Below, one piece after another: positions 15,960-62,149 of a DNA stretch of 64,000 bases. The notes under the pieces are model-generated. The model ran no database searches, was not told the DNA's origin, and saw only the letters and a program-made list of their open reading frames with translations. Location of the stretch: IMG/VR virus record IMGVR_UViG_3300005077_000747, positions 23,944-87,943 of that record; one strand, given 5' to 3'. How positions within the stretch are numbered: the stretch's first letter is position 1; each line of letters begins with the position of its first letter. Source of the DNA: a virus. Both the position numbers and the translations under genes were made by a program.

Positions 15960-15973
15960 TATAAACTCCTAAT

Positions 15974-16059: not shown

Positions 16060-16067
16060 ACAGTATC

Positions 16068-17127: not shown

Positions 17128-17135
17128 TTTATCAG

Positions 17136-20035: not shown

Positions 20036-20040
20036 TCAAA

Positions 20041-36730: not shown

Positions 36731-36844
36731 TTCGTCTTCCTCCGACTCGAAGTAACATCGGTTGAAATAGTGTTAAAAGTTAACTTAAGTCTTCCGCGCA
36801 TATTCAACCTCCCAAGCGTAATGCTAGAGTCAATAGTTTCCATA

Positions 36845-37195: not shown

Positions 37196-37373
37196 ATCTT
37201 TTATAGCACTTATGACATTTTCGTTGGTGGGGCTTAACTACGGCATTTCGGATGCAATAAGCCTCCCAAGAAACTTTACATTTAATAAAACGAGTCTTCT
37301 TTGGCTGGGTCTTTAAACTGTAGTAACACCACTTATCGCAGACAGGACATTTCCATTTTAAGAACCAAGCCAT
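37026..37373 (-). CDS. small Zn-ribbon protein, CxxCxxR[LVI]xCL family
   Basis: CPVCD...CHKCYKRFDCL. Confidence 0.5.
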   Translation of the reverse strand: MAWFLKWKCPVCDKWCYYSLKTQPKKTRFIKCKVSWEAYCIRNAVVKPHQRKCHKCYKRFDCLTLGFRILESNNVNMVYLVHTKNHHYWCLEDSEYVEFQQKERRTKKNLPNLFL

Positions 37374-37648
37374 TACTCATAGCACTTTCTTGATTGTGCC
37401 AAACATTTTAATCTATCCGGACAGTCATCACAGGTGAACGGCTCATCAGTATAAATTTCCTTCATTGTGTTTAAGTTAATAATCAACCAGTCTGCTTGCT
37501 GGTTGATCATATCGCAATCACACTCAAAGTGACCCCAATCTAAATCCCATGAAGGGAATAAGTGAGCACCTGTAGGTAACACATCTATTTGAGCACTATA
37601 AACACTTCGCAAATCCGTTTTACATGTACGACAAAGAAATCTAAACAC
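37373..37648 (-). CDS. small Zn-ribbon protein, CxxCxxR[LVI]xCL family
   Basis: CRTC...CDDCPDRLKCLAQS. Confidence 0.55.
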   Translation of the reverse strand: MFRFLCRTCKTDLRSVYSAQIDVLPTGAHLFPSWDLDWGHFECDCDMINQQADWLIINLNTMKEIYTDEPFTCDDCPDRLKCLAQSRKCYE

Positions 37649-37898
37649 GTCTCAACACTACTACATGGTGTATAGAACTTTTAATCATGCATTCAACCCT
37701 ATACCCGCAATCACTGCGGCATTTTGTGTAAACACATATATTGAAAGACGCGTTACATGCATAACAGTGTAATCGACGGACTGGCCTAATTTGCAAACTC
37801 ATGTGAGACATTTTACCCATACAAATGTAATAATCAATGTCATTGTGTGCTTTACATTCAGGGCATATAGCAACCTTTATACGATAAACTCGTTTCAT
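37641..37898 (-). CDS. small Zn-ribbon protein, family variant
   Basis: CPECK...CYAC...CRSDCGYRVECM. Confidence 0.5.
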   Translation of the reverse strand: MKRVYRIKVAICPECKAHNDIDYYICMGKMSHMSLQIRPVRRLHCYACNASFNICVYTKCRSDCGYRVECMIKSSIHHVVVLRRV

Positions 37899-37900
37899 AA

Positions 37901-38233
37901 CTAATCAATGAAGATCTGTGGGTATTCAAAGGCCCTCCTTGTAAACTTTCTTGTTCTATAGAGACGGTCTCGATACTTTATTACTACGATCTTCCGAAAG
38001 TTACTTACATACCAACCTAATATTTCAACGTGTGGATCTTTCTCGTCGATATCAACTTCCCACAATATTTGGTGGAGGAATTTTGCTTTCATTGTAGTGA
38101 CTTTAAAAGCCGGAGTGGTCTTTGTTAATGACACAGCTTCCGGGCTGACATCACCCACATCTAATTGTATAATACTATCTTCCGCCGTCTGCGTAAAAGT
38201 ACTATCCACAGGTCCTGTAGCCATCTTCATCAC
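37901..38233 (-). CDS. hypothetical protein
   Basis: Minus ORF 110 aa. Confidence 0.45.
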   Translation of the reverse strand: MMKMATGPVDSTFTQTAEDSIIQLDVGDVSPEAVSLTKTTPAFKVTTMKAKFLHQILWEVDIDEKDPHVEILGWYVSNFRKIVVIKYRDRLYRTRKFTRRAFEYPQIFID

Positions 38234-38475
38234 ACAAGCTCCTCAAGCTCTGCACATACATAAGGAACAGAATCAATATCCAAAGATGCCCCCAAGAACG
38301 CTACTCGATCGAATACTAAATAATACACCTGATCTAAATCATTGTGACAACGTTTCTTAGAGTAGACGACTTTAACTTCATCCACACAATGATTGGCTGT
38401 AACCCGTATGCCTCTTGGTTCGTTACATATTGGGCACACCCACCAATACCTATACTTATACTTTCTATCACTCAT
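38230..38475 (-). CDS. small Zn-ribbon protein (degenerate family tail)
   Basis: CPICN...VFDRVAFL. Confidence 0.45.
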   Translation of the reverse strand: MSDRKYKYRYWWVCPICNEPRGIRVTANHCVDEVKVVYSKKRCHNDLDQVYYLVFDRVAFLGASLDIDSVPYVCAELEELV

Positions 38476-38476
38476 T

Positions 38477-38683
38477 TTATGAAAACTCGATTAAGATACA
38501 TTGAAGTCGGTTCGGACACACTTTACAATAACCATCATCAAGCTCCAACTTCTTACCACACTCCAAACAAAAATAGATGTGCATGTGCTCGCACTTTTTA
38601 GACTGTGCATATGCGAGATACTTAGCCCCACATTTAGGGCATCTCAGATGGTAAATTGGGTGTGGCTGTATGAAAGTAAGCAC
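38477..38683 (-). CDS. small Zn-ribbon protein, CxxCxxR[LVI]xCL family
   Basis: CPKCG...CLECG...CKVCPNRLQCI; GTG start 12 nt after TATAAT (near-leaderless). Confidence 0.55.
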   Translation of the reverse strand: MLTFIQPHPIYHLRCPKCGAKYLAYAQSKKCEHMHIYFCLECGKKLELDDGYCKVCPNRLQCILIEFS

Positions 38684-38694
38684 TTTTTTATTTT

Positions 38695-38725
38695 TATTAT
38701 AAGTGCTCTTTGGGCTGAAAATAAA
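38695..38725 (-). promoter_or_regulatory. sigma70-type promoter (TTTATT-18-TATAAT) with AGCC..AGC spacer
   Basis: Minus-sense GCGTTTATTTTCAGCCCAAAGAGCACTTATAATAAAAATAAAAAA GTG. Confidence 0.5.
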
Positions 38726-38776
38726 CGCTGATTAAAATGGCTCCACAAAAAATCCATGCAGCCTAGGCTGAGAGTC

Positions 38777-48279: not shown

Positions 48280-48379
48280 GATACTTCCTCCTTAGGAGCT
48301 TTACCGGCTTAGCCGGTTTATTTTTATCCCCACTAAGTGGGGTTGGTACGCTAACCTTAATTCCTTCATTTTTGATTTT

Positions 48380-48410
48380 ATTATAAATGCCCAAATGGCT
48401 TTTTTTCAAC
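48380..48410 (-). promoter_or_regulatory. sigma70-type promoter copy 1 (TTGAAA-18-TATAAT)
   Basis: Minus-sense GCGTTGAAAAAAAGCCATTTGGGCATTTATAAT. Confidence 0.55.
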
Positions 48411-48502
48411 GCTGAAAAAGAGGGGATCCTAAATTTCGTTTCAATAAATCCCCTTGCCCTCAATTACGTCCCCCCATCTTTAATTCCTTCATTTTTGATT
48501 TT

Positions 48503-48533
48503 ATTATAAATGCCCAAATGGCTTTTTTTCAAC
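48503..48533 (-). promoter_or_regulatory. sigma70-type promoter copy 2 (TTGAAA-18-TATAAT)
   Basis: Duplicate of 48380..48410. Confidence 0.55.
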
Positions 48534-48580
48534 GCTGAAAAAGATGGCTTTTTAATTTCCATTTGAATCCCCGGCTTGTG

Positions 48581-48982
48581 TCACCTCCGATAAAGTTTAG
48601 CTACCACATCCTCAAAAGTCAACCCCGTAAGTCGTTTAAAAACCTCCTCATCGGCACCTGGGGAGTCTTGTATATGTACCTCCTTCCCGCCAGCCGCAGG
48701 GATTTTCTTGATAAAGTAAACACCTTGCCTTGACCCATTACATACATGCCATACAACTTTATTGTAGCAGGGATTAAGGGAAACTAAACATGCAACTCGT
48801 TCATCACACTTCTCACACAGTTTGGCACTCGCTGCGTTTGAAGTTATTACAGTTATTTCTAAACACGGATGCTCAACAGTATTACACTCGCACCACTCAT
48901 AATAAACCTGATTTACTCTGGTCTTTATATAGATCATCCTACTCATTAGGTCCCTGCTCTTTCTTACACAATTCACATTCAC
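48581..48982 (-). CDS. Zn-ribbon family protein
   Basis: CEKCDERVACLVSLNPC. Confidence 0.55.
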   Translation of the reverse strand: MNVNCVRKSRDLMSRMIYIKTRVNQVYYEWCECNTVEHPCLEITVITSNAASAKLCEKCDERVACLVSLNPCYNKVVWHVCNGSRQGVYFIKKIPAAGGKEVHIQDSPGADEEVFKRLTGLTFEDVVAKLYRR

Positions 48983-49124
48983 AAGCTATTTTAGGGCCTA
49001 CTACTTTTATCCCGGACCCTATAGGCCTACCACACTTCTCACAAACTAAATCCCATTCACCACCCACATAAACCAATTCCCAGTGAGCCATACAGCACCT
49101 GGAATGCACATACATTATACCCAT
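48939..49124 (-). CDS. small Zn-ribbon protein
   Basis: CEKCGRP...CECELC. Confidence 0.4.
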   Translation of the reverse strand: MGIMYVHSRCCMAHWELVYVGGEWDLVCEKCGRPIGSGIKVVGPKIACECELCKKEQGPNE

Positions 49125-49133
49125 ATCCCCTCC

Positions 49134-49673
49134 TCACCAATGTACTTTCTTTGCTCTTTCAACCCAGTATAAATTTAGCTCGTACTCTACTTGAATAAAC
49201 TTCGGGCGCATGTTTCCAATCCGAATCACGCCAGTGCCCCTAATACACCCATTTCCAGTGTAGTCACGATACGCATGGAAAAACTTATCAGTTCCATTAA
49301 GAATTCTCAACGCCCGTATCCCCAGCTCTGTTATTCGGTACGTCCCTCCTCTCCCTTCCAATCTCGAGCGAGCAATAAGTCCTCCGACTAATAATTGGAG
49401 GACATATAAATGAGTATTGCTAAACCGAATATCTCGGAGCGGAACTTCTCCAAACCTATCAAGAAATGCTAAAGTACGGTGTGCATTAGACCCCTGCAGG
49501 ATTGAGAACTTTTGAGTTTCCAAAAGCCTCCACACCCACCTACGATGCCAGGGCATTTTACAGGTATGGCCTCCCAAGCATGAAACACGCTTCATACATG
49601 TTTCGCATACAAGCATATTTCCAATAGCCCCTTTTCGGGTGTAATAAGTTCCGCTCCGCATTCTACATCTCAC
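49134..49673 (-). CDS. protein with N-terminal CxxCxxR[LVI]xCL motif + C-terminal domain
   Basis: MLVCETCMKRVSCLGGHTC... Confidence 0.5.
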   Translation of the reverse strand: MRCRMRSGTYYTRKGAIGNMLVCETCMKRVSCLGGHTCKMPWHRRWVWRLLETQKFSILQGSNAHRTLAFLDRFGEVPLRDIRFSNTHLYVLQLLVGGLIARSRLEGRGGTYRITELGIRALRILNGTDKFFHAYRDYTGNGCIRGTGVIRIGNMRPKFIQVEYELNLYWVERAKKVHW

Positions 49674-50164
49674 TTATCGCAGGGGTGTGTAATATCCATA
49701 CTTTGAAGGACTGCCGCCACCTTCTCTGAGGGTCTTGGGACCTCTACCTTGTTCTTTGCCCTCTCTTCCTCCAAGTCACCAACCAGCAACTCAATAACCG
49801 TATGGAGCTCGTTAATGTAGGCAATCGCTTCTTGAAAGTTTCGTGGCGGCCCCGCTGCAGGAGCTTTGATGTCTTCTTTCGGCTCTTCAAGCCTAACCGT
49901 CTCAGCAACCTTTGATGAAGTTGGCAATGCAATTATCCGGGCAGCCCCTCCAATTTTTACAGGACAACTATTGGGGAGGATTTTACGGGAGTCATAAACG
50001 ATGTACTTAATTTCTCTACGAGCCGTGACATCGTACTCCTTCTTCATATCGAACCCCTGTTTTCGTAGCCATCGACCTACAGCCGCCATTTGCTGAATGC
50101 TTAAACTCCGCCCCGGAAATACATCTTTGATGTATTCCTGGAACGCCTTCTTTGATTGTCCCAT
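49670..50164 (-). CDS. hypothetical protein
   Basis: Minus ORF 164 aa. Confidence 0.5.
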   Translation of the reverse strand: MGQSKKAFQEYIKDVFPGRSLSIQQMAAVGRWLRKQGFDMKKEYDVTARREIKYIVYDSRKILPNSCPVKIGGAARIIALPTSSKVAETVRLEEPKEDIKAPAAGPPRNFQEAIAYINELHTVIELLVGDLEEERAKNKVEVPRPSEKVAAVLQSMDITHPCDK

Positions 50165-50170
50165 TATGTA

Positions 50171-50344
50171 CCTCCTCTATTTTGTAGTAAAGAATAATAT
50201 CGTACCGCTGCTTATTAACCCCATACGTATTCTGTATGCGTGATGATCAATAAATTCTAACGCCTCCGATGACAATGTTACTGAAGGGATAACAAGACAC
50301 TCGAGTCTCTCTTTACACTCCTTACAACGTTCATTTGCGTTCAT
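50171..50344 (-). CDS. small protein with N-terminal family motif (MNANERCKECKERLECL...)
   Basis: Hand-translated, 57 aa; below the ORF-track threshold. Confidence 0.35.
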
Positions 50345-50432
50345 AATATGAGCTCGGCCACAATAAGCACAATGAATCTTGCACTCTTTAGAGCCCCAAT
50401 AGGAAACTAGTCAACCTATACGGCCACACACT

Positions 50433-50681
50433 TTACATTTTACTATTAAAGGATCCATCAGCATTTCTCTGGAAGTAACCTAACAGATCGGCGGCACCCC
50501 ACGTCTGGATACAATGTTCACAAAAATAAGTAAAGGCACAAACATTTCCAGCGAGACATTGTACCCGTCCATCACAAATATCACAACAGCCTAAGCGAAT
50601 AAAGAAATGGTCACCGCACCACATGCAGCTATTTTCTTGGCTCATGTCCATACATCCGAACGTATACTCGATGTATTGCAT
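50433..50681 (-). CDS. small Zn-ribbon protein, CxxCxxR[LVI]xCL family
   Basis: CMWCG...CCDICDGRVQCL...CEHC. Confidence 0.55.
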   Translation of the reverse strand: MQYIEYTFGCMDMSQENSCMWCGDHFFIRLGCCDICDGRVQCLAGNVCAFTYFCEHCIQTWGAADLLGYFQRNADGSFNSKM

Positions 50682-50853
50682 TGACTTCTTCAGTGGTATA
50701 TGCTAAATCAATGTTCTTGATGATCCCAAGTAACTGCTCTTCAGTTTTCTCCCTCCACATTTCCATAGCCCATGTATCTGCATTTCTCATGAAACCTCCT
50801 CCACCTCTATAACAGCTAACGGGTTTGCAAAACAATCGACACGACCAAGACAA
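50629..50853 (-). CDS. hypothetical protein
   Basis: Minus ORF 74 aa overlapping neighbours. Confidence 0.35.
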   Translation of the reverse strand: MSWSCRLFCKPVSCYRGGGGFMRNADTWAMEMWREKTEEQLLGIIKNIDLAYTTEEVNAIHRVYVRMYGHEPRK

Positions 50854-50990
50854 TTAGAACAGTCAGTACCATTTACAATTACTCTTGCTCTACACTGATT
50901 ACATCTAGCCCAACAATACGCGGGTATGTGCTCGACTGTTTCAACCAATAAATCTTTACACACCGGACAATAGAACTTATAAACCTTCAT
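50787..50990 (-). CDS. small Zn-ribbon protein, family
   Basis: CPVC...CNQC...CSNCLGRVDCFANPLAV. Confidence 0.55.
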   Translation of the reverse strand: MKVYKFYCPVCKDLLVETVEHIPAYCWARCNQCRARVIVNGTDCSNCLGRVDCFANPLAVIEVEEVS

Positions 50991-51312
50991 TACATCTTCC
51001 AGGAACCGCTAAGCACTTAATCCTATCAAGACACTCCTCACACGTCAAATCATACAAACGACATACCCTAATTACCATTTTACATGAAGGACATTGACAT
51101 ACCCCTCTAATCGGTTCAGACCATAAAATGAGTTGTGCACCACAATGTGGACAAGGGTAATCTAATTGAGCTATTAATTCTTGCCCACCCGAACAGGATT
51201 GCAATGCTTGTGGAAAGTGAAAGTAGCTGCCCCCAGAGCGTTTAATACACAAACCCTCATTATGATCCTTATAGTAAATCGTTCCGTAATACTCTAGGAT
51301 TCGCTTACTCAA
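50977..51312 (-). CDS. small Zn-ribbon protein, family
   Basis: CPHCG...CPSC...CEECLDRIKCLAVPG. Confidence 0.55.
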   Translation of the reverse strand: MSKRILEYYGTIYYKDHNEGLCIKRSGGSYFHFPQALQSCSGGQELIAQLDYPCPHCGAQLILWSEPIRGVCQCPSCKMVIRVCRLYDLTCEECLDRIKCLAVPGRCNEGL

Positions 51313-51709
51313 TTACCTCCCCTTCACCCGCGAACGTTAATTTACATCTACGTACCTCTGGTAATCTTTCAATCACCTCAAGAACATCTGACAACCCGAA
51401 GAAGAACTTAGGGCTTACCGCGAAGTTAATTTCATCAGGCACTTCATATACAACAGGGGTATGAGGACATTCCGCTCCAACAATGCATAATAGCCGCCTA
51501 TCACAGATCGTGCATGGATTCTCATAGCGGCTTGCCAACCGTGGTATATCCGTCTCGTTTACGACCTCTTTAAGTTCCTGGTTGTAAAACTTTACCCGCA
51601 ACAAGTATTCAATCACTGGCTTCCTGAACTCATTGAATATTTGTTGGATGGAGTCGAACATTACATCCTCGAAGCAATTATCATCCTCTCGGTAGATCAG
51701 GTACTTCAT
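51305..51709 (-). CDS. Zn-ribbon family protein
   Basis: CTICDRRLLCIVGAECPH. Confidence 0.5.
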   Translation of the reverse strand: MKYLIYREDDNCFEDVMFDSIQQIFNEFRKPVIEYLLRVKFYNQELKEVVNETDIPRLASRYENPCTICDRRLLCIVGAECPHTPVVYEVPDEINFAVSPKFFFGLSDVLEVIERLPEVRRCKLTFAGEGEVIE

Positions 51710-51710
51710 A

Positions 51711-52022
51711 CTACCTCCGATCGAATGGGAAGTTCATTTCCTTATGTATGCTTCTCAACTTACTGCATACATCTTCAAGGAACTTCTGCTGATCTTCGGG
51801 GAATCCCTTAAACTCCTCATCGGTACACTCTCGGAGGGTTAGATCATTATTAAATCTGAGCACTGCGGTGCAATAAATACAGAGACTTAGATCCCCGGGC
51901 TTTGGACCTCTGGTACTTATTGCCCTAGCCCTATCTAGCTGCTTACCACACACAGGACAGCCCACCGCTGGCACTACAAAATCTTTATCCATTCCTCGCT
52001 CCCTACTCAACGTCAATCCCAA
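51711..52022 (-). CDS. small Zn-ribbon protein (no terminal motif)
   Basis: CPVCG...CIYC. Confidence 0.45.
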   Translation of the reverse strand: MGLTLSRERGMDKDFVVPAVGCPVCGKQLDRARAISTRGPKPGDLSLCIYCTAVLRFNNDLTLRECTDEEFKGFPEDQQKFLEDVCSKLRSIHKEMNFPFDRR

Positions 52023-52296
52023 TACTTCTAAAAAAGTCCAGGTTTGTTGGCTTAATCAGCATCTTCAGCTTTATGCTTGACCTCCCATCCCTGCAGTCCT
52101 TACTGGCCTTTAAATGCTCCTTCATAGGAATGTCAGCCTTATTAAACAGATCTGTATAAATGGACCCCCCTATAGGCACCTTACCGAATTTAAATCCACA
52201 ATAAGGACAGTAGATTTCCAAGTCCCTGCCCGTTTGTTTAACCGCAACGATAAACTCCATCCCCATCAAGATATCATGAATATCCATAATCTTCAT
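52003..52296 (-). CDS. small protein with CPYCG knuckle
   Basis: Minus ORF 97 aa. Confidence 0.4.
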   Translation of the reverse strand: MKIMDIHDILMGMEFIVAVKQTGRDLEIYCPYCGFKFGKVPIGGSIYTDLFNKADIPMKEHLKASKDCRDGRSSIKLKMLIKPTNLDFFRSIGIDVE

Positions 52297-52492
52297 CTCC
52301 TCTATCCGCTACGGGAAAAATAAGACATCTTAACCGACCAATACATGTGTCACATTCAGGGGCCTCCACTGTTTTAAATGTCGTCCCACATGAAGCACAA
52401 CAATAAACAATGCAATACTTCCACCTTGCATACCTCACCTTAGCTCCGCATGAAGGGCATATACTCATTCCACCTCCTTCGCGGTCAGACAT
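52274..52492 (-). CDS. small Zn-ribbon protein, family
   Basis: CPSCG...CASCG...CDTCIGRLRCLIFPVAD. Confidence 0.55.
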   Translation of the reverse strand: MSDREGGGMSICPSCGAKVRYARWKYCIVYCCASCGTTFKTVEAPECDTCIGRLRCLIFPVADRGDEDYGYS

Positions 52493-52809
52493 ATATGTTC
52501 ATTCAAGAACAGAGTGTGTATACCTTCTTCATGGTAGTATTCCTTCCAACTACGTATTGACTTAATACACATCAGTGTTTTAAGATCCACTGGTATATGT
52601 ATCTGATCACAACACAGATTTAATGAGCTCCCCACCGCGGGAACAAATACACAATCCTCTGGGGTATTGATACCTCCCTTAATTAAATACCCAGCCTCTC
52701 CACTTTCATACACATGAGGTGTCGAAAGGAATTTAATACCACATCCACCATTTTGAACTATGCAATCCAACCTATTCCTACAATGATTACAATTCAAATC
52801 GGTTGTCAT
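52465..52809 (-). CDS. protein with N-terminal family motif
   Basis: MTTDLNCNHCRNRLDCIVQNGGC. Confidence 0.5.
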   Translation of the reverse strand: MTTDLNCNHCRNRLDCIVQNGGCGIKFLSTPHVYESGEAGYLIKGGINTPEDCVFVPAVGSSLNLCCDQIHIPVDLKTLMCIKSIRSWKEYYHEEGIHTLFLNEHICLTAKEVE

Positions 52810-53009
52810 TTTTCTACCTCAAATGTAGACATGGTTAAACAAGAGAGCTTATGGACACAAGATTCGCACTCCGTGTAATGAATAATACTCCAAACCCCAC
52901 AACTACATTGATACCTACAAGGAAACGTTTCTATAAACCCGAAGAAACTAATCCCGGCCTTACATGACGGACATATAAACCTGTACGACTTTGGTCTCTT
53001 CATAACCAT
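52806..53009 (-). CDS. small Zn-ribbon protein, family
   Basis: CPSC...CSCG...CESCVHKLSCL. Confidence 0.55.
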   Translation of the reverse strand: MVMKRPKSYRFICPSCKAGISFFGFIETFPCRYQCSCGVWSIIHYTECESCVHKLSCLTMSTFEVEK

Positions 53010-53233
53010 TTATGAGTCCCTGCAACTATCGTGTCTGCAGTCACTTCCTTGTATTCCGTAACTCGTTTCATACCTAAACATGTAACTCTCAGGCAACATT
53101 CATCACAATTATCTAAAGGTATGGCAAATGATTCACCACACCCACATTCTTTAAAACAACAGGTACTGTGGAAGATTTTTATCTCTCCACAGGCCGGACA
53201 TTTGAAAATTATGAATTCATGTTCTACGCCCAT
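53000..53233 (-). CDS. small Zn-ribbon protein, family
   Basis: CPACG...CGCG...CDECCLRVTCL. Confidence 0.55.
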   Translation of the reverse strand: MGVEHEFIIFKCPACGEIKIFHSTCCFKECGCGESFAIPLDNCDECCLRVTCLGMKRVTEYKEVTADTIVAGTHKWL

Positions 53234-53463
53234 TCTTCATACTCCTCAATGGTGTACGGTGTGATATCGGTAGGTCTAGCATATGCTAAACACTCTACTC
53301 GTTTATGGCAACCACTGCAATCAACATCTTCTCTAACGTTCATTAAGTTATCACATTCTTCACAAACCGTTAAGCACATAATAGTGGGTGTTATAATAAT
53401 GAATCCACAATATGGACACGTATACCTAAACAAGTCAACGTCTTTCACTTCCCATCTACTCAT
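53224..53463 (-). CDS. small Zn-ribbon protein, family
   Basis: CPYCG...CEEC...CSGCHKRVECLAYARP. Confidence 0.55.
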   Translation of the reverse strand: MSRWEVKDVDLFRYTCPYCGFIIITPTIMCLTVCEECDNLMNVREDVDCSGCHKRVECLAYARPTDITPYTIEEYEEWA

Positions 53464-53469
53464 CTTAGT

Positions 53470-53871
53470 TTACACTCCATCCGCATCTCTTAACAAACAT
53501 TTAACCCTATGCATACATTCTTCACAATCATCACACACTATAAACTTTTCGTGACAATCAAAACACTTGATCATCTTTCCAGCCCAACTAAGTAATAGGT
53601 ATGATTTGAATCCACAATGTGGGCAGACTTGTTCAATGTAGAGTTTCTTTGGAGAGCGAAACTTGAAGTCTTGGGAGGGGCCGAAGTTCCGATCAATATC
53701 CAAGGTAGGCGCTTGAACTTCTATGAAGGCATTGTTCTTAAACAATGATACAAGACTTGAATACACCACTCTGGCTTCCATGGTGTTACGGGCACTAAAA
53801 CTAAACCGGGTTAACATTACTCTAGTATTGCCCCACATATCTTCGCTGAACCCGAATTGATACCTTGGCAT
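53470..53871 (-). CDS. Zn-ribbon family protein
   Basis: CPHCG...CFDC...CDDCEECMHRVKCL. Confidence 0.55.
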   Translation of the reverse strand: MPRYQFGFSEDMWGNTRVMLTRFSFSARNTMEARVVYSSLVSLFKNNAFIEVQAPTLDIDRNFGPSQDFKFRSPKKLYIEQVCPHCGFKSYLLLSWAGKMIKCFDCHEKFIVCDDCEECMHRVKCLLRDADGV

Positions 53872-53881
53872 TATTAACCCC

Positions 53882-54097
53882 CTATATAATTGCCCGTGGC
53901 GTTATCAAACATTCAAGCCTCTTTTCGCACCCATCACATTCAACAGGATCAGTGACAAGGATTTGAATGGTAAGACAGAAGATACAACATGTTCTGCATG
54001 ATAATGGCTTTGTGCGAGATGAAATCAACAAACTCATCCCACAACCCACGCAAACATAATCGTATCCATGTTTACCAACCACCTGCACGGATTTCAT
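53882..54097 (-). CDS. small Zn-ribbon protein, family
   Basis: CVGCG...CRTCC...CDGCEKRLECLITPRA; first gene behind promoter 54118..54148. Confidence 0.55.
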   Translation of the reverse strand: MKSVQVVGKHGYDYVCVGCGMSLLISSRTKPLSCRTCCIFCLTIQILVTDPVECDGCEKRLECLITPRAII

Positions 54098-54117
54098 TTG
54101 TATCCTCTTTTATTTTT

Positions 54118-54148
54118 ATTATAATGGCTTTTTGGGCTGAAAATAAAG
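54118..54148 (-). promoter_or_regulatory. sigma70-type promoter (TTTATT-18-TATAAT) with AGCC..AGCCAT spacer, heads the tandem Zn-ribbon array
   Basis: Minus-sense CCACTTTATTTTCAGCCCAAAAAGCCATTATAATAAAAATAAAAGAGGATACAAATG. Confidence 0.55.
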
Positions 54149-54282
54149 TGGAAATAAAAAGGCTAAATAAAAAATGTATCAATGTCGGCTAAAAGGCTTT
54201 TGGAAGTTTGCACAAGTTCAAGGCACAAAATAAAATGGGGACCCTAATGGGTCCCCTATCGGTCCCAACACCTTTGCCTTTC

Positions 54283-54519
54283 TTATGGAACAGCCAAAGC
54301 GTCTTTCATGATCTCCACTTGATCATCTTCCTCGAACAAGTAAACTTCGGTGCTTTCGATAGCCTCGAAAATTTCCCAATCGGACCATTGTTCCCGCGGG
54401 AATAGATCAAGCAGCCGTCTCCAATTCTCTACCATACTATTGGCCCAAGTCGGAACTGTTTTGCTTTCCACTTGCTCCGGAGTCAACTTACACCGTTTCT
54501 GCCATGCTTGCATCTTCAT
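54283..54519 (-). CDS. hypothetical acidic protein
   Basis: Minus ORF 78 aa. Confidence 0.4.
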   Translation of the reverse strand: MKMQAWQKRCKLTPEQVESKTVPTWANSMVENWRRLLDLFPREQWSDWEIFEAIESTEVYLFEEDDQVEIMKDALAVP

Positions 54520-54532
54520 TCCTCCTTTAAAG

Positions 54533-54787
54533 TTATCTCAGTTCGTTTGGAATCCCATAACCATCACCCAACTTCTTATTACCACTATACTTCTCATAGA
54601 ACGGTAAGTTATGAAAAGTAAACTCCCAACACAGATCACATGTGGGACATATCACATTTATAATAACCATCTCATTATAGAACGCGACAATCGATCTCGA
54701 TAGAGCTCCACCACATTCAGGACATTTCTCAGTCATCTCCATACCCCCCACCAATTTAATATCGTTCCTTTTGGTTGAATTAAACAT
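54533..54787 (-). CDS. small Zn-ribbon protein
   Basis: CPECGG...CPTC. Confidence 0.45.
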   Translation of the reverse strand: MFNSTKRNDIKLVGGMEMTEKCPECGGALSRSIVAFYNEMVIINVICPTCDLCWEFTFHNLPFYEKYSGNKKLGDGYGIPNELR

Positions 54788-54800
54788 ACAACCAACTTCA

Positions 54801-55316
54801 TTATCCCCAACCCTTTTTGAGGATCAATATCATCTGAAAGATCCCTGAACCAGCTTCATCATAGTGTTGGAATGAATGAACGTTTTCATCATCGATCTCG
54901 ATAGAGACCGTAGCAAAAACCCATTTACTAAAGACCTGTTTCATATTAGTCAACCATTCCCTAACCGAAACAGTTATGAGTTCATCCTTCTCAGGATCAT
55001 ACCACTGGTTATAATCCTTTATGATTAACGTCGATCTATCTTTCGTTATACGATCAATTTCGTCTGCAATACTTTGGCGTTCGCCGAAACTGCAACTATA
55101 CAGTCCAAACGAGTACCACACCATATCATATTCTTTGTCTTCGGCGGGTGTTGGATTTTCTGTACTGGCATGTTGCAAATAAATTACTTGATCAGTTATA
55201 GCTCCAACACTTTTGCATTCCTCAATGTCTTCTTCGGTTAAGTTCCCACAACACAAGTCAGCTCCAGGAAGTTGCGTTGCAGGTTCATACCCCGTACCCA
55301 AATCTAATACTTTCAT
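54801..55316 (-). CDS. possible small SAM-dependent methyltransferase-like protein
   Basis: N-terminal VLDLGTGYE resembles class-I MTase motif I; weak. Confidence 0.35.
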   Translation of the reverse strand: MKVLDLGTGYEPATQLPGADLCCGNLTEEDIEECKSVGAITDQVIYLQHASTENPTPAEDKEYDMVWYSFGLYSCSFGERQSIADEIDRITKDRSTLIIKDYNQWYDPEKDELITVSVREWLTNMKQVFSKWVFATVSIEIDDENVHSFQHYDEAGSGIFQMILILKKGWG

Positions 55317-55540
55317 TTAGTCCCTCCTACGGGTAAGACATTTAACTCGATGTTTACATACATCACACGCATCCATCTTCTCATCAACGTTATGTTACAC
55401 CGATCACAACTCATCATACACATTGGATTACCATCATACCACTCTTCAAAGAAGAGTGACTTTGTTGTCTTACATTCTGGACAAGTAACACCAAGATACT
55501 CCGCAGACAAAATATGTTCCTTAAAATTAAACTCTGACAT
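55313..55540 (-). CDS. small Zn-ribbon protein
   Basis: CPECK...CDRC. Confidence 0.45.
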   Translation of the reverse strand: MSEFNFKEHILSAEYLGVTCPECKTTKSLFFEEWYDGNPMCMMSCDRCNITLMRRWMRVMYVNIELNVLPVGGTK

Positions 55541-55770
55541 TACTCGTTCTCACCATCTCTAAGTGTCCAATCTTTCCAATCGCCCTCTGTCGTTATAGTA
55601 ATTGGCGGTTTCGCCACGCAACTAAGACGTGACTTACATTCGTCACACTTCTCTGTCCATCGTACAAACAACGTCTTACAACCCAAACAAAAAAAGGAAT
55701 TCGGACAGGCCGGAGAGGCAACTATAGTCTGTTCACATTTAGGACAGGCATCTTTAAAGAAGACCGGCAT
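55540..55770 (-). CDS. small Zn-ribbon protein, family
   Basis: CPKCE...CLGCK...CDECKSRLSCVAKPPIT. Confidence 0.55.
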   Translation of the reverse strand: MPVFFKDACPKCEQTIVASPACPNSFFCLGCKTLFVRWTEKCDECKSRLSCVAKPPITITTEGDWKDWTLRDGENE

Positions 55771-55891
55771 TAGTTACTTGAACTCCGTATAGCACGTTCA
55801 TTACTATCTTAACGTAGGTTTGATGGACAAGTAAGTTTGTAGTAACCAAGATCCAACTAATCAATCCACCCTCTCGTATGAAACGTTTCAT
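55754..55891 (-). CDS. 45-aa hydrophobic small protein
   Basis: Hand-translated MKRFIREGGLISWILVTTNLLVHQ...; RBS AAGGGGG. Confidence 0.3.
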   Translation of the reverse strand: MKRFIREGGLISWILVTTNLLVHQTYVKIVMNVLYGVQVTNAGLL

Positions 55892-55925
55892 GGTACCCCC
55901 TTATAATGAAACATCTTTTGTTTTT

Positions 55926-55956
55926 ATTATAAGGGCTCCTTTGGCTAAAAATAAAG
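55926..55956 (-). promoter_or_regulatory. sigma70-type promoter (TTTATT-18-TATAAT) with AGCC..AGCC spacer
   Basis: Minus-sense CACTTTATTTTTAGCCAAAGGAGCCCTTATAAT. Confidence 0.5.
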
Positions 55957-56206
55957 TGAGAAAAAGAGGGCTCAAAAATTTTTGGATCATACCCACTAAA
56001 AATCGGGGTAAAAAATTTTTGACGTGCAGTTTTTTAGGTGCGGACCTTCCTAGGGATTTGTATAATTGACCCACTAAAATTGGTCCGCGAATTTGGAGAG
56101 AGCTATCCCCGGCCCTATGCGGCGGCGAGCGTGATTGTATATTGTTCGACCGTATCGGGGGAGACCCAAATCCAACTTGCTTATGGCTAATAAATCGCTA
56201 GCACAA

Positions 56207-56572
56207 TTAAAGGGGACAATAGACCAAGGCGGCTCCATGCCAATCTCTCCATAGGCTTAAGGCTAAAAAATCATAGTTCCTTTGCACAATAAGCAGGAGA
56301 GGTTGAATGGGTAGCTTCCGACGATACCTTTGCTCGGCAGACACTAAGTTAAAGATACCTTGATCAACCGCACCATTAACTAACGTACCTGCGGTAACAT
56401 TAACTTTACGTTTCTCTGCTACCTTAAGTATACGTAACATATAGATACGGAACTTAGAGAATGCACTATTCTCATCACGGGTACGAGAACCGGTAGTACG
56501 AGGTTCGATTAACTGTTCGAACAAAGCCTCGTCTTCATCTACCACGTTTACTTCTTTGTTAGTCTCGGTCAT
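56207..56572 (-). CDS. paralogue-A family small protein (C-terminal extent uncertain)
   Basis: EDEALFEQLIE...RDENSAFSKFR...VAEKR...GAVDQGIFNLVSAEQRYRR shared with 62781..63362. Confidence 0.5.
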   Translation of the reverse strand: MTETNKEVNVVDEDEALFEQLIEPRTTGSRTRDENSAFSKFRIYMLRILKVAEKRKVNVTAGTLVNGAVDQGIFNLVSAEQRYRRKLPIQPLLLIVQRNYDFLALSLWRDWHGAALVYCPL

Positions 56573-59859: not shown

Positions 59860-60960
59860 TTATGCACCGTACACTCTTTTGCGAATCTCTTTCATGACTT
59901 CGCCCGTGAGAATCTTGAGGGCAAGGTCTTGGGGAAGGGACTTCAGGAATACGAACGTGAGCTCATCGCTCTCGTGTTTGAGCATGAACTGTTGGACGTT
60001 CGTGACTGCCTCCTTACCGAGCCCCTTCAGTTCATGCAGCTTGGATGAGAGCCGGGAGTAAGTAAGGTTGATGATATCGGGCTTCTTCTTCAACGCTTCA
60101 AACTTTGTCGCAGAGTACTTGCCTGAGATGATCTCTTCAGGGAGAATAACCTGTTCCTGGGTCTTGACGCAGGTGACGAAGGAGGTACGTATAGCGGCAC
60201 CCACCCGAGCATCAAGTCTCAACTGAGCGATCTCGGACAAGATGGACTGTCCGCCATCCTTAATGCACCGCAGAGCTTGGTTGGCGAAGTCGCAGGTTCT
60301 TGGAGAGGCACCTTCACCATCAGTCCCGACCACTTCTTTGTAGAGATTGAGGAACGCAGTCCATTCAGGGACCCAATTATTCTTCAGGGCGTACTGCATA
60401 AAGACATTGAAGTCCAGACGGACGTGAAGGGTCTCCATCCTCTCTACTTGTGCAAAGTCAAGGCCACGAGTGGAGTACTTATCGGAGGTGCTGGGATTGG
60501 AAGTCAGCACGACTCTTACATCAGGATGGAGATCAAGAGCGCCGACTTTGTAGTCCAGGAAGACGGGCATGAGGGATTGAAGGATCTGAGCGGGTACACG
60601 GTTGTAGTCATCTAACAAGAGGATGACTCTTTTGAAGTTCCCGGAAGCTGCAGCCTCGTTGGCTTCCACAGCCCAATACGGAGCAGCATAAATAGTCCGA
60701 GCACCCGAATCCCCATTTGCGGTCTTGGGCATACCAGCGATGTCACCGGGCTCCGTGATAACCGCAGCAGTAGGAACGAAGATCACCTTGTAGGCCGGAT
60801 CTTCCTCAAAGCTCCGAATGATGGAGGTCTTTCCAATACCTGCACCGCCTTCTAAGTTAACGGTTACTCGGCGAGGACCCTCGTTCAGCATCATTCGAGT
60901 AAGTTCCATGGCCTGATTCAAATCTACTTCCGCATACCTCTCATTAACACCTTTACTCAT
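59860..60960 (-). CDS. MoxR-like AAA ATPase (copy 2)
   Basis: Walker A GGAGIGKTS, Walker B ILLLDDYNR, VLTSNP; paralogue of 18321..19457. Confidence 0.7.
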   Translation of the reverse strand: MSKGVNERYAEVDLNQAMELTRMMLNEGPRRVTVNLEGGAGIGKTSIIRSFEEDPAYKVIFVPTAAVITEPGDIAGMPKTANGDSGARTIYAAPYWAVEANEAAASGNFKRVILLLDDYNRVPAQILQSLMPVFLDYKVGALDLHPDVRVVLTSNPSTSDKYSTRGLDFAQVERMETLHVRLDFNVFMQYALKNNWVPEWTAFLNLYKEVVGTDGEGASPRTCDFANQALRCIKDGGQSILSEIAQLRLDARVGAAIRTSFVTCVKTQEQVILPEEIISGKYSATKFEALKKKPDIINLTYSRLSSKLHELKGLGKEAVTNVQQFMLKHESDELTFVFLKSLPQDLALKILTGEVMKEIRKRVYGA

Positions 60961-60970
60961 AATACCTCCC

Positions 60971-62149
60971 TTATTTGTTTACTCCGCGCATACGGAGAGT
61001 CGTTGCCCAGTCAGGCAGGTTAGCATGGCTATCTTCAGTGAGGACGATCAATACCGACTTCAGGCCAGCAGGAATGCCTCCGCTCACATCAAAGATGTAC
61101 CCATCAGTCAGGATAATCACTTCTTGCATCTCAGGGAAACCTTCTTGGACTTTCACAATGGCTTCGCGAAACATTGTCCCGCCACCTCCATGAACTTTCG
61201 GAGGTGTGCCGGTGTAGATATAACTATCATGAAGTGCAGCATCAACTTCATGAACCCAGATGCGGTAGCCCATAAGATGAAGTTTATGTATGATGCTGAA
61301 ACAGGCACCGATCTCTTTATTAGACATCGACCCTGAAGTATCTACCATGATGTGAACCTCCCCCTGATAATCATGCTTAGCTCCAGGAGGTATAGAATAT
61401 CTTCGGGAGGTATGACGCTTACAGAAACGCCAGTCTTCGCTTTGCTCCGATGACTGAGCATAAGTAATGAACTGGTCTTTCCAATCGACGTCAGCAGTAG
61501 TTTTGTATAGATCTCGAAGTGCTCCACTGGGAGCCGTCCCCGCCATCTTGCATGCTCCCTCAAAGAGGTTGCGCGCAAGTCCCTCAGCTTCTATCTCAGG
61601 GACGTCGACCTTCCAGAAGTGCTCCGGAACTTCAACTTCGAATTCCTCATCCGTCTGACTGCCACCTTTCGAAGGATCTCCCTTCCCATCCCCTTTGACC
61701 TTAACTTTAATCTTCTTAGTAGGGAGGTTTGAAAGGTACCACTCATACGTTTTGTTCTTATCCAACTTGAACTGAGACGGCATAAGAACAAATTCCGGTT
61801 CGTGGATGTGGCAGGCATCTGAAAGGAAGGAGTTGGTTGCTAAGTCCATGGCGATGTTATTAATCATATGGGACCTATCAGCCCCCGCATTCCTAGCTCG
61901 CCAAGGGTGCTTAAACAAGAAGTGGGCAATCTCGTGCATAAGAATGTACCTCTGATCGGCTTCCTTATACTCAAAGAACTCATCAGGGTTAATTACGATG
62001 CACAAGCTTTCACGGACAATCATTCCCGCAGGTGCTGGGAGATCCTTTTCAAAAGACCAAGTACACACTGCGAGGACGTGACCGAAGAAAGGTCGTTGCT
62101 CTAGAAGATTCATTACGAGCCTACGAATCTTCTTTCGATCCTCACTCAT
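60971..62149 (-). CDS. VWA-domain + HExxH (DUF2201-like) protein (copy 2)
   Basis: HEIAHFLFKH; DTSGSM; paralogue of 20041..21273; immediately precedes MoxR-2. Confidence 0.65.
   Translation of the reverse strand: MSEDRKKIRRLVMNLLEQRPFFGHVLAVCTWSFEKDLPAPAGMIVRESLCIVINPDEFFEYKEADQRYILMHEIAHFLFKHPWRARNAGADRSHMINNIAMDLATNSFLSDACHIHEPEFVLMPSQFKLDKNKTYEWYLSNLPTKKIKVKVKGDGKGDPSKGGSQTDEEFEVEVPEHFWKVDVPEIEAEGLARNLFEGACKMAGTAPSGALRDLYKTTADVDWKDQFITYAQSSEQSEDWRFCKRHTSRRYSIPPGAKHDYQGEVHIMVDTSGSMSNKEIGACFSIIHKLHLMGYRIWVHEVDAALHDSYIYTGTPPKVHGGGGTMFREAIVKVQEGFPEMQEVIILTDGYIFDVSGGIPAGLKSVLIVLTEDSHANLPDWATTLRMRGVNK

Follow-up and report, generated by a model that had tools for sequence, protein, structure and literature searches.

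What does a run of tiny, tightly packed genes in a phage genome encode, how is it expressed, and how did it arise? We addressed these questions in a window of 64,000 nt (the whole stretch of DNA analysed) from an uncultivated tailed phage. On the minus strand, from 55,891 to 50,177, 21 small genes abut or overlap one another and are split into two units, A and B; such packing had been described in an earlier sequence-only reading, and every ORF coordinate quoted there was recovered in a mechanical ORF list. Specifically, adjacent genes overlap by 1–28 nt or are separated by at most 13 nt, with three exceptions: the 185-nt terminator/promoter spacer between the units, a gap occupied by an extra 53-aa gene (50629–50790, coordinates inferred from the ORF translation), and a gap that takes in the 5' portion of a broken gene. 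Since start codons were set by the longest-ORF rule, some of the overlaps are inflated. GGAGG-type sites precede many of the starts. Dense packing is general rather than specific to the array, the whole window being about 90% coding and on one strand.

The transcriptional layout was derived from a long conserved promoter element, for which a pattern search gave three matches versus 0.00 expected (100 shuffles). The regulatory features and flanking genes are as follows.

55910–56005, minus strand: predicted promoter element of unit A, core 55921–55949 (TTTAGCCAAAGGAGCCCTTATAATAAAAA); pattern search, alignment with the two other copies, nhmmer E=4e-23.
54237–54256, minus strand: predicted strong intrinsic terminator closing unit A, GGGGACCC-ATTA-GGGTCCCC followed by ATTTTATTTT; 8 pairs, 7 of them G-C.
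54102–54197, minus strand: predicted promoter element of unit B, core 54113–54141; pattern search, alignment, nhmmer E=3.4e-24.
48581–50164, minus strand: probable continuation of unit B, four genes (49670–50164, 49134–49673, 48939–49124 and 48581–48982), two of which carry the cysteine motif described below; the product of 49134–49673 is very basic (pI 10.4).
48357–48568, minus strand: next promoter copies, an 89-nt unit duplicated in tandem; downstream limit of unit B.
38680–38776, minus strand: third, near-identical promoter element, core 38691–38719 (E=5e-25), heading an array of the cysteine family at 38.7–35.5 kb.

The element belongs to a wider promoter class of about ten copies, all on the coding strand and all ahead of genes, which share TTGAxx or TTTATT, an 18-nt spacer with an AGCCNT end, and TATAAT. 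In the three array promoters the -35 is poor (TTTATT); they might need a phage activator, in which case they would be middle rather than early promoters. No additional copy of the conserved element lies inside either unit, and generic sigma-70 promoter and terminator scans across the region stayed at chance level, with no excess inside the units. Since the interval from 54197 to 48568 is free of promoter copies, unit B probably extends to 48,581. The region is therefore best read as two adjacent operons on the minus (coding) strand, not one, because it has two promoters and one terminator, all predicted: unit A with its promoter, six genes and the terminator, and unit B with its promoter, 15 genes down to 50,177 and probably four more down to 48,581. 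The sequence-only reading had placed the genes behind a single promoter; both promoter positions that it gave coincide with cores of the conserved element, while the single transcription unit gives way to two. Its proposal of co-expressed polycistronic paralogue cassettes is retained in part: the genes include paralogues and are grouped into operon-like units, each headed by a conserved promoter element, and their geometry suggests polycistronic transcription and translational coupling.

The array genes are linked by a cysteine motif, C-x2-C-x2-[RK]-[LVI]-x-C-L, present in 14 of the 21. In 11 of them the motif closes a module of about 50 residues with eight cysteines, of the pattern CPxC(G), 12–18 residues, C-x3-C-x2-C, 9–14 residues, and then the motif. 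In transcription order, the genes of unit A are:

55754–55891, minus strand: hydrophobic ORF of 45 aa without cysteine, from the ORF list; GGGGG Shine-Dalgarno-like run before its ATG; uncertain as a real gene.
55540–55770, minus strand: family member, 76 aa, motif CDECKSRLSC; profile E=3.1e-14; 8-Cys variant with one scaffold cysteine displaced.
55313–55540, minus strand: broken family member; zinc-ribbon half in frame (family profile matches positions 2–31 only), motif CDVCKHRVKC (55338–55367) in the -1 frame.
54801–55316, minus strand: class I SAM methyltransferase-like protein, 171 aa, non-family; PF08241 at 22.5 bits versus a cut-off of 21.2; homologue present in the relatives L003/L004.
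54533–54787, minus strand: small zinc-ribbon protein, 84 aa, without the motif; from sequence, weak zinc-ribbon matches only.
54283–54519, minus strand: acidic protein, 78 aa, calculated pI 4.5, non-family; ORF list.

Those of unit B are:

53882–54097, minus strand: family member, 71 aa, motif CDGCEKRLEC; profile E=2.5e-14.
53470–53871, minus strand: family member, 133 aa, C-terminal module, motif CEECMHRVKC; profile E=6.8e-16.
53224–53463, minus strand: family member, 79 aa, acidic (pI 4.4), motif CSGCHKRVEC; motif and profile.
53000–53233, minus strand: family member, 77 aa, motif CDECCLRVTC; motif and profile.
52806–53009, minus strand: family member, 67 aa, motif CESCVHKLSC; motif and profile.
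52465–52809, minus strand: motif-only variant, 114 aa, N-terminal motif CNHCRNRLDC; fourth cysteine 7 residues downstream.
52274–52492, minus strand: family member, 72 aa, motif CDTCIGRLRC; profile E=5.1e-16.
52003–52296, minus strand: small protein, 97 aa, CPYC knuckle, without the motif; sequence and domain search.
51711–52022, minus strand: zinc-ribbon protein, 103 aa, without the motif; domain search; the sole gene of the array with a recognisable counterpart in the relative L006 (49% identity).
51305–51709, minus strand: motif-only variant, 134 aa, mid-protein motif CTICDRRLLC; fourth cysteine downstream.
50977–51312, minus strand: family member, 111 aa, motif CEECLDRIKC; motif and profile.
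50787–50990, minus strand: family member, 67 aa, motif CSNCLGRVDC; motif and profile.
50629–50790, minus strand: the 53-aa gene, without cysteine; internal start of ORF 50629–50853, its ATG overlapping the preceding stop (ATGA).
50433–50681, minus strand: cysteine-rich motif-bearing protein, 82 aa, motif CDICDGRVQC; profile; fourth cysteine downstream.
50177–50464, minus strand: full family module with an in-frame TGA at 50411–50413 (translation MLMDPLIVKCKVCGRIG, stop, LVSYWGSKECKIHCAYCGRAHIMNANERCKECKERLECL...); profile E=5.8e-10; a 55-aa ORF (50177–50344) is left downstream of the TGA.

With the motif in 14 of 21 genes, the description of the genes as mostly family members is borne out; at E<=0.01 the family profile picks up 12 open frames in the array region. 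The window as a whole contains 42 copies of the motif in minus-strand reading frames and none in plus-strand frames, and called ORFs account for 37 copies versus 0.08 in within-protein shuffles (maximum 2). At E<=1e-3 the profile recovers 41 open frames on the minus strand, including 19 that were not used to train it, and it matches no plus-strand frame of the window even at E<=0.1. The family takes roughly a third of the phage genes. Because these ORFs are very short, without database homologues, and from a metagenome assembly, we considered whether they are artefacts, with a DNA-level repeat or compositional bias mimicking a protein family. This reading is effectively refuted, and its probability is close to nil: the motif arginine is written with all six codons and the leucine with five, which places conservation at the protein level, the 33-nt motif has a mean nucleotide identity of just 53%, the strand and frame asymmetry is strict, homologues are kept in frame in three divergent lineages, and the family alignment yields an AlphaFold model of high confidence. 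The family genes are real and protein-coding.

Searches of Pfam, PHROGs, PDB, BFVD and 50,697 phage genomes gave no family match beyond the generic zinc-ribbon half, and other members were found only in a few related metagenomic phage contigs from IMG/VR. The cysteine family is thus previously undescribed and limited to a small clade of related phages. As to the wider context, the window contains a tRNA cluster, the phage-collection matches of a gp41/DnaB-type helicase include T4-type gp41 helicases (best 25.8% identity), and in the relative L001 a replication and nucleotide-metabolism module with a TGT-like gene lies just downstream.

To describe the fold, we used an AlphaFold2 model of the module (pLDDT 89.2, pTM 0.73), which has four strands and two short helices and was built without metal. 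In this confident model a zinc ribbon precedes the two helices, which bear the motif. Three alignments of the module show seven to eight (nearly) invariant cysteines, the C-x2-C-x5-C spacing of the motif is invariant, and a candidate fourth cysteine lies near the motif in 38 of 42 copies, upstream in the module and downstream in the motif-only form; the other four copies have no obvious one. On the basis of this conservation and the metal-free model, the module would hold two metal ions, site 1 formed by the four ribbon cysteines and site 2 by the extra cysteine before the second knuckle together with the three motif cysteines.

Zinc and iron–sulfur are not separable by sequence alone, and the terminal motif may instead be an iron–sulfur site, the family then being redox-, oxygen-, NO- or iron-sensing mini-regulators. 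C-x2-C-x5-C plus a remote cysteine is the spacing of the [4Fe-4S] proteins WhiB-like, FNR and endonuclease III, which the invariant motif spacing and the fourth cysteine, upstream or 5–8 residues downstream, would fit; additionally, the motif is fused to basic proteins (49134–49673 and 35888–36310) that look winged helix-turn-helix-like by eye, without Pfam support. However, 20 family proteins searched at permissive thresholds matched neither Whib (PF02467) nor any other Fe-S family, a motif-only profile run against the PDB at E<=10 found no WhiB, FNR or EndoIII chain, and the G[VI]WGG turn was not found anywhere. The WhiB fold is all-alpha, whereas the model combines a beta-ribbon and two short helices, and its weak structural neighbours are all zinc proteins. 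We consider the iron–sulfur reading unlikely.

The motif also stands alone, at either terminus or in the middle of proteins that otherwise have nothing in common, usually with its fourth cysteine 5–8 residues downstream. Its terminal positions would suit a portable address tag, modelled on encapsulin cargo-loading peptides, that directs proteins to the capsid for ejection or to the shell of a vault-like MVP homologue; the genome does encode an MVP-shoulder protein, at 30705–33266 (E=3.6e-30). With its three invariant cysteines and, in most copies, a fourth close by, the motif looks more like a metal site than a linear docking peptide; it appears in the model as an integral, confidently folded part of the 8-Cys module, and neither co-variation nor genomic linkage tied it to the MVP gene. 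This idea, purely an analogy, is very improbable. The small size and cysteine content of the products likewise recall precursors of ribosomal, modified or secreted peptides of the bacteriocin or toxin kind, and a radical SAM protein is encoded at 21282–21962. That gene is 30 kb from the array and, because of the TGT-like gene in the L001 module, is suspected of acting in a DNA-modification pathway; moreover, the N-termini show no visible leader- or signal-peptide-like stretch, the array and its neighbourhood contain no maturase, protease or exporter, and the metal ligands of the module form a regular two-site pattern. We regard a peptide-precursor role as extremely unlikely.

How the array arose was judged from similarity between modules. 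The sequence-only reading had proposed serial tandem duplication and diversification, and in its strict form, in which neighbouring genes were recently duplicated step by step and then diverged, array order should mirror genealogy. The members are indeed side-by-side paralogues, but no trace of such a history was found: adjacent modules have a mean similarity of 18.35 versus 19.28 when permuted (p=0.61), with p=0.91 for 29 modules and p=0.43 within the array, and similarity does not correlate with genomic distance (Spearman rho about 0). Outside the cysteines, array members are about 20% identical to one another and likewise about 20% identical to members elsewhere in the window, and the best partners of array members usually lie 10–48 kb away. 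Stepwise duplication is thus undetectable in the array, neighbours being no more alike than distant copies, and a recent origin of this kind is improbable. The adjacency signal may be saturated, and tandem duplication may be ancient here. Tandem duplication does operate in this clade, as three adjacent members in the relative L002 (15.3–16.4 kb) share 31–46% non-Cys identity; within the window, the neighbours 5663–6010 and 5284–5688 are among the more similar pairs. The two further arrays reported at 35563–38683 and 4119–6010 are both real by motif and profile searches. Since family members occur throughout the 64 kb and some are fused to unrelated proteins, the array is a local cluster within an expansion that spans the genome.

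Divergence is about twice as fast in the family as in nearby core genes: identity to relatives is 28–46% for family genes versus 55–76% for the core. The sequence-only reading had set ongoing turnover against an identical, fixed array in related phages, and the arrays differ: the syntenic position in L006 holds different genes in a different order behind a promoter copy, and the content in L003 is likewise different. Two copies are broken, one by the in-frame TGA (50177–50464) and one by a frameshift (55313–55540), although both could be assembly errors instead of decay. On the strength of the differing arrays in relatives and the two broken copies, we take turnover to be real.

Together, these data favor, with a probability of roughly 60%, a new two-metal mini-domain that has expanded in this lineage and whose copies are co-expressed as a diversified set of small binders. 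The operons, with their sigma-70-type promoters, would be transcribed by host RNA polymerase during the early or middle phase, the tight junctions would couple translation of neighbouring genes, and the metal scaffold would keep each tiny protein folded while its surface varies freely. By analogy to other fast-evolving accessory gene arrays, the products may bind host or phage macromolecules, with possible roles in regulation, host take-over or counter-defence.

The closest precedent for such an expansion is the zinc-ribbon family of Bacillus phage G, which has about 35 copies and for which Iyer et al. proposed transcription factors or structural DNA-binding proteins (PMC7824862). A corresponding role here, as sequence-specific transcription factors or structural DNA-binding proteins, is possible but doubtful. 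The median pI of 8.2 in motif-bearing proteins versus 6.7 in others, the winged-helix-like appearance of some fusions by eye, and the conserved AGCC-containing boxes of the promoter class, which are candidate operator sites, are consistent with it. However, array members span a pI of 4.4 to 8.5 and many are acidic or neutral (4.4, 4.5, 5.4, 5.5 and 5.7), and a Pfam search detected no DNA-binding domain. The phage G family has four to six cysteines and a WKENDRYL helix at the C-terminus; the motif is missing from it, and its homology to our family stops at the ribbon: when our family profile was run on phage G proteins, the ribbon half alone matched.

The window encodes a hugely expanded, clade-restricted domain family with a portable terminal motif. 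The motif reads C-x2-C-x2-[R/K]-[L/V/I]-x-C, usually with Leu in the next position and often with Pro three residues on. Its copies number 42 in the minus-strand frames of the window and 0 in the plus-strand frames, and 37 of them fall in called ORFs, compared with 0.08 expected and a maximum of 2 in within-protein shuffles. The motif Arg uses all six Arg codons and the Leu five, with a mean nucleotide identity of 53% over the 33-nt motif; conservation therefore acts at the protein level, and a DNA-level repeat as the source of the family is ruled out. In the related loci examined, the motif was found on the coding strand only, at 0.14–0.68 copies per kb. That the family is an artefact we consider next to impossible.

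About half of the motif copies terminate a module of ~50 residues, which consists of CPxC(G), 12–18 residues, C-x3-C-x2-C, another 9–14 residues and the motif. The module contains eight Cys, seven or eight of them invariant or nearly so, in alignments whose mean column identity is only 14–27%. A profile of the module recovers 41 minus-strand open frames at E ≤ 1e-3, including 19 outside the training set, and 48 at E ≤ 0.01; the best plus-strand frame of the window reaches only E = 0.13. The remaining motif copies stand alone at the N-terminus, in the middle or at the C-terminus of unrelated small proteins, where the fourth Cys is typically located 5–8 residues downstream, while in the full module a remote Cys lies 16–24 residues upstream of the invariant C-x2-C-x5-C. 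Altogether, a candidate fourth ligand Cys is present near 38 of the 42 copies, and degenerate motif variants with one-residue insertions also occur. The notion that the motif is a targeting tag we judge very improbable. As a separate observation, the predicted proteome of the window contains 3.6% Cys, which is several-fold more than is common in bacteria or phages.

The family is hard to find elsewhere. Megablast of 50,000–56,000 and tblastn of the member protein P0024 (E ≤ 1) against 50,697 phage records gave no match. Word-indexed searching of 5.8 billion proteins led back to the window's own contig (JGI, 88,095 bp) and, beyond it, to seven proteins encoded on other contigs. Further members came only from an exhaustive HMMER scan of 1.84 billion representatives, which yielded 634 matches at E ≤ 0.001. 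Among the best 150 of these, large proteins match in the ribbon half only and small ones end to end, and ~14 are full-length members from outside the window, all with the eight-Cys pattern and the motif. Two array-adjacent proteins found nothing in IMG/VR. A search with A5, the alignment of a conserved orthologue, found one 2.5-kb metagenome contig, in IMG/VR only an already known contig, and had no match among 185,579 species genomes. The clade is seldom represented in public data, and no host is indicated.

The window is nearly all minus-strand coding, with 142 mostly small ORFs (greedy ORF selection) covering ~90% of the sequence and a negative GC skew throughout, and Rfam detected tRNAs only. 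Individual features are as follows.

13835–17222, minus strand: seven tRNA genes (Ser-GCT, Trp, Glu, Asp, Asn, Ser-TGA and Tyr) with small ORFs between them
18321–21273, minus strand: first of two paralogous pairs of MoxR-like AAA and DUF2201 (metallopeptidase-like plus VWA) genes
59860–62149, minus strand: second of these pairs
21282–21962, minus strand: radical SAM / Fer4_12 protein
30705–33266, minus strand: MVP homologue of 853 aa, with the shoulder domain (PF11978, E = 3.6e-30) and weak Vault_3 and SPFH matches

The matches of the gp41/DnaB-type helicase in the phage collection include T4-type gp41, the best being Microcystis phage Mel-JY01 at only 25.8% identity, and SNF2-type and phosphoesterase genes are also encoded. 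The two copies of the MoxR-like AAA/DUF2201 pair are ~40% identical to each other, and both are conserved in relatives. Just past the window start, after the helicase, the related contig L001 (11248–21017) encodes a formyltransferase, a TGT-like protein, a UDG-PolA fusion (835 aa), a phage PD-(D/E)XK nuclease and a ThyA-like gene. Together with the radical SAM gene, these suggest a DNA-modification pathway, possibly of the 7-deazaguanine type, and a replication module with a family A polymerase. The relatives carry the PhageMetallopep domain, the phage PDDEXK domain and the UDG-PolA fusion, and related contigs are present in IMG/VR. The window itself contains neither a capsid nor a terminase gene; the hallmark genes and their context are those of a tailed phage. 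From these features and the relatives, we therefore assign the window to the early/replication part of an uncultivated tailed phage that is deeply divergent. Separately, 'first viral MVPs' have been reported in gut phages (bioRxiv 10.1101/2023.11.10.566534), and the MVP homologue at 30705–33266 would add a further phage-encoded example from a different context.

The 50–56 kb array contains 21 minus-strand genes from 55,891 down to 50,177, and the small ORFs named in the sequence-only reading were each recovered in the ORF list at the coordinates quoted there. Specifically, the array comprises 11 full modules (two of them broken), 3 motif-only genes, 3 other zinc-ribbon-like genes and 4 unrelated genes, one of which is methyltransferase-like and lies slightly over the Pfam threshold. 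Neighboring genes overlap by 1–28 nt or are separated by at most 13 nt except at three larger gaps, and GGAGG-type sites precede many starts. The first of these gaps (185 nt) holds a strong intrinsic terminator at 54,237–54,256 (8 pairs, of which 7 are G-C, then ATTTTATTTT) and, after it, a promoter element; the second is occupied by a 53-aa gene (50629–50790) whose ATG overlaps the preceding TGA; the third includes the 5' part of a broken gene.

Both promoters proposed earlier turned out to be copies of a conserved element, ...CACTTTATTTTYAGCCMAARRAGCCNTTATAATAAAAAYAAAAGA, which occurs three times (0.00 expected), at 55,921–55,949, 54,113–54,141 and 38,691–38,719, the last copy heading the other large array of the family. 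The three copies can be aligned over ~90 nt, and their likeness ends ~10 nt past the -10 box; as the first downstream genes are moreover unrelated, we rejected a segmental duplication of promoter plus genes. An element profile reveals a wider promoter class of ~10 copies, all on the coding strand, and copies are also present at syntenic positions in the related contigs L002 and L006. A second paralogous family, unrelated to the first and without the Cys motif or a Pfam match, has several copies directly behind a promoter copy in the window and L006.

5' ends 62254, 56682, 56004, 54197, 48554, 48425, 43966, 38776, 29876 and 23570, minus strand: copies of the promoter class, located by profile
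62781–63362, minus strand: second paralogous family
56207–56572, minus strand: second paralogous family
L006 13471–13962 and 15318–15710: second paralogous family in this relative
L003 12466–13432: second paralogous family in a more distant relative

Common to the class are a -35-like hexamer, either TTGAxx or TTTATT, then an 18-nt spacer with AGCCNT at its end, TATAAT and an A-rich stretch. Within it, the promoters of the three arrays make up a subclass that has TTTATT in place of TTGAxx and in which a further ~60 nt upstream are alike; because of the weak -35 and this additional conservation, they may be activator-dependent promoters of a middle class. The element profile found no copy of the class inside either of the two units into which the terminator and promoter divide the array (A upstream, B downstream), and scanning the units for generic promoters and terminators gave matches at chance level. 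Since the next promoter copies downstream of unit B are a tandem pair at 48,357–48,568, unit B probably runs past the end coordinate first assigned to the array, to 48,581. The pair is itself a tandem duplication of an 89-nt promoter-bearing unit (48357–48445 and 48480–48568; 90% identity, 123-nt spacing). Of the proposal of one array behind a single promoter, the operon-like anatomy stands, but the genes form two units with two promoter elements and one terminator. This anatomy fits polycistronic, coupled operons, in which host polymerase would transcribe the units from sigma-70-type promoters and translation would be coupled.

Related contigs allow the array to be followed between phages. 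L001 and L002, both from sample 3300036980, are syntenic to 12.2–0 kb and 29.7–13.2 kb of the window, respectively, and L006 from the same sample to ~71–53 kb, while L003–L005 represent a more distant lineage, 25–48% identical and syntenic to 62–54.8 kb. Between the window and its closest relatives, core genes are 55–76% identical, compared with 28–46% for syntenic family genes. At the array-syntenic position in L006, the upstream gene is the same and a promoter copy is present (16,014–16,081), with different genes behind it: the first is closest to 38477–38683 of the window (40%), the next recognizable one is a homologue of 51711–52022 (49%), and the other array members have no one-to-one counterpart in L006. 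L003 has the methyltransferase-like gene in common with the window, followed by unrelated small genes. In L002, four members follow the AAA gene at a place that other genes occupy in the window, and the member located between the AAA and DUF2201 genes of the window is missing. The gene sets of L006, L003 and L002 are thus unlike that of the window, no identical array recurs, and the arrays are therefore not fixed, as had been expected of a region in turnover. Fast divergence and variable content characterize the family.

Two array copies are broken. The first, 50177–50464, encodes an otherwise complete module but carries an in-frame TGA at 50,411–50,413 (minus strand), and in the second, 55313–55540, the motif lies in the -1 frame, with a one-base frame change at 55377–55395 (minus strand). 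Judged from the sequence, they may represent either real gene decay or assembly errors. We rejected programmed frameshifting, no slippery heptamer being visible at 55,377–55,395, as well as TGA recoding, in view of TGA ending 10 of the 24 genes examined and a negative ARAGORN search for suppressor tRNAs.

The sequence-only reading had further supposed that the array grew by serial tandem duplication. With Cys-Cys matches removed before scoring, adjacent modules scored 18.35 compared with 19.28 in random orders (p = 0.61), which does not bear out stepwise duplication; an adjacency signal was also absent from a larger set of 29 modules (p = 0.91) and from the array alone (p = 0.43). Module similarity shows no correlation with genomic distance, and identity within the array equals that between the array and the rest of the window (~20%). 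In L002, three neighboring members are clearly related (31–46% non-Cys identity), which shows that tandem duplication takes place in the clade. We consider it rather improbable that the present gene order arose by recent tandem duplication; in the 50–56 kb array, either the tandem history has been erased or the genes came by other routes.

Neither Pfam nor PHROGs places the family members in any family at threshold. The commonest weak match is Zn_ribbon_6 (PF07191, double zinc ribbon), seen in 11 of 24 members with a best E of 0.002, one scanned member reaching 18.5 bits where 25 are required. DZR (PF12773) gives a best E of 0.053, and the gathering threshold that defines membership of the Pfam double zinc ribbons is reached by neither. 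Among PDB sequences, only profile positions 1–33 match, to generic zinc ribbons (RPA12, eS27, LysW and RPB12), and a motif-only profile retrieved nothing meaningful from the PDB (best E 0.07; no WhiB, FNR or EndoIII chain). A first AlphaFold run on 22 sequences (pLDDT 58.8) was discarded. The model built from 35 sequences has a pLDDT of 89.2 and a pTM of 0.73, and predicts with confidence a ribbon-plus-helices fold, which is mostly beta and comprises four strands in two hairpins, then two short helices bearing the motif. Its N-terminal half displays the zinc-ribbon arrangement of two CxxC knuckles, each on a beta-hairpin, which would form one tetrahedral site. Foldseek against the PDB and BFVD gave no match at E ≤ 0.001, the alignments of ~35 columns covering the ribbon only. 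The idea that the genes encode peptide precursors strikes us as exceedingly improbable.

Sequence and model together suggest two putative metal sites in the module. The first would be the zinc ribbon, formed by CPxC and the second CxxC, and the second would unite the three motif Cys with the extra Cys that precedes the second knuckle. Zinc and iron-sulfur are not distinguishable by sequence. The Cys spacing of the terminal motif is identical to that of the [4Fe-4S] sites of WhiB-like proteins, FNR, endonuclease III/MutY and AddB/Cas4 (C-x2-C-x5-C plus a remote Cys), which also have in common with it a hydrophobic residue after the last Cys, and the family contains the WhiB-like Cys pattern C-x(n)-C-x2-C-x5-C. 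This shared spacing is what favors Fe-S sensors, a reading that is nevertheless rather unlikely, for no sequence or fold relationship of the family to WhiB, FNR or EndoIII is detectable. Specifically, Whib (PF02467) matches none of 10 family proteins (E ≤ 1) or 10 motif-fusion proteins (E ≤ 0.1), the G[VI]WGG turn is absent from every predicted window protein, and the WhiB-like (Wbl) fold is all-helical, whereas the model of the family is mostly beta. A broader version, in which C-x2-C-x2-R-[LVI]-x-C-L is a portable [4Fe-4S]-type sensor cassette pasted onto zinc ribbons, winged-helix-like and other small proteins, we hold to be distinctly unlikely. If it were true, about a third of the proteome would respond to redox state, oxygen, NO or iron, and host take-over and phage gene expression would be tied to the physiological state of the host; we know of no such redox/iron-responsive proteome fraction in any virus. 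An iron-sulfur cluster at the second site would make the finding considerably more interesting.

We infer that the family products would act as a diversified set of small binders. Phage genomes are rich in tiny genes of unknown function, mostly singletons beyond analysis; here one sharply defined domain occurs in at least 41 copies in 64 kb, far more densely than in phage G. A confident predicted fold, an invariant core and free variation elsewhere amount to a natural library of one mini-scaffold, comparable in its logic, by analogy, to the zinc-finger or knottin expansions of eukaryotic arms races, and therefore to a tractable entry point into the roles of small early phage proteins. These are striking and clear-cut facts, and the family offers good experimental access to small phage proteins. 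The domain merits a family entry, given that Pfam, PHROGs and structure libraries do not recognize it at present.

Among known systems, generic zinc ribbons (RPB12/Rpo12, eS27, LysW, TFIIS/RPA12, FmdB-type CxxC_CxxC_SSSS and haloarchaeal CPxCG small proteins, e.g. the DUF1610 protein 6YDH) resemble the N-terminal half, with its CPxCG hairpin and second CxxC hairpin, by profile and, over ~35 residues, by fold. Generic ribbons, however, have four ligands for one metal and lack the C-terminal helical motif as well as an additional Cys ahead of the second knuckle; none matches over the whole module, and all Pfam ribbon matches are below threshold. The two-zinc IBR and RING2 (Rcat) domains of RBR ubiquitin ligases and the DNL-type zinc fingers are also among the closest systems considered. 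As for gene organization, T4-type and other large phages have hyperplastic regions of tiny packed early genes with host-type promoters, which evolve fast and vary between relatives. Such regions contain mostly unrelated ORFans, whereas here one domain family supplies most array genes.

The zinc-ribbon expansion of Bacillus phage G, with ~35 copies, was termed unprecedented by Iyer et al. (2021, PMC7824862), who suggested that its ribbons serve as specific transcription factors or as DNA binders with a structural role. As in the window, dozens of small zinc-ribbon paralogues are found in one phage, many of them adjacent (gp32, 34, 35, 37 and 46; gp32 is YP_009015343.1). By analogy, the family members could be transcription factors, which we place on the unlikely side: array members have pI values between 4.4 and 8.5, which speaks against nucleic-acid binding as their uniform role, even if some fusions of the motif are very basic (49134–49673, pI 10.4, net charge +19). 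Judged by eye, 49134–49673 and 35888–36310 (minus strand) are fusions of the motif to winged helix-turn-helix-like proteins, with no support from Pfam. The two expansions differ in density, ~35 copies in 498 kb compared with at least 41 in 64 kb, and in the proteins themselves: phage G gp32, gp34, gp35, gp37 and gp46 have 4–6 Cys and a C-terminal ...WKENDRYL... helix, and lack the motif. The first 50 kb of phage G contain no copy of C-x2-C-x2-R-[LVI]-x-C-L, and the window profile matches the phage G region at ribbon positions 2–29 only (best E = 7.6e-5, in the gp29 frame). Since the phage G proteins lack the motif and match in the ribbon half only, the window family is not homologous to that of phage G beyond the generic ribbon, and constitutes an independent, much denser case. 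The general phenomenon has a precedent in phage G; the domain itself is new.
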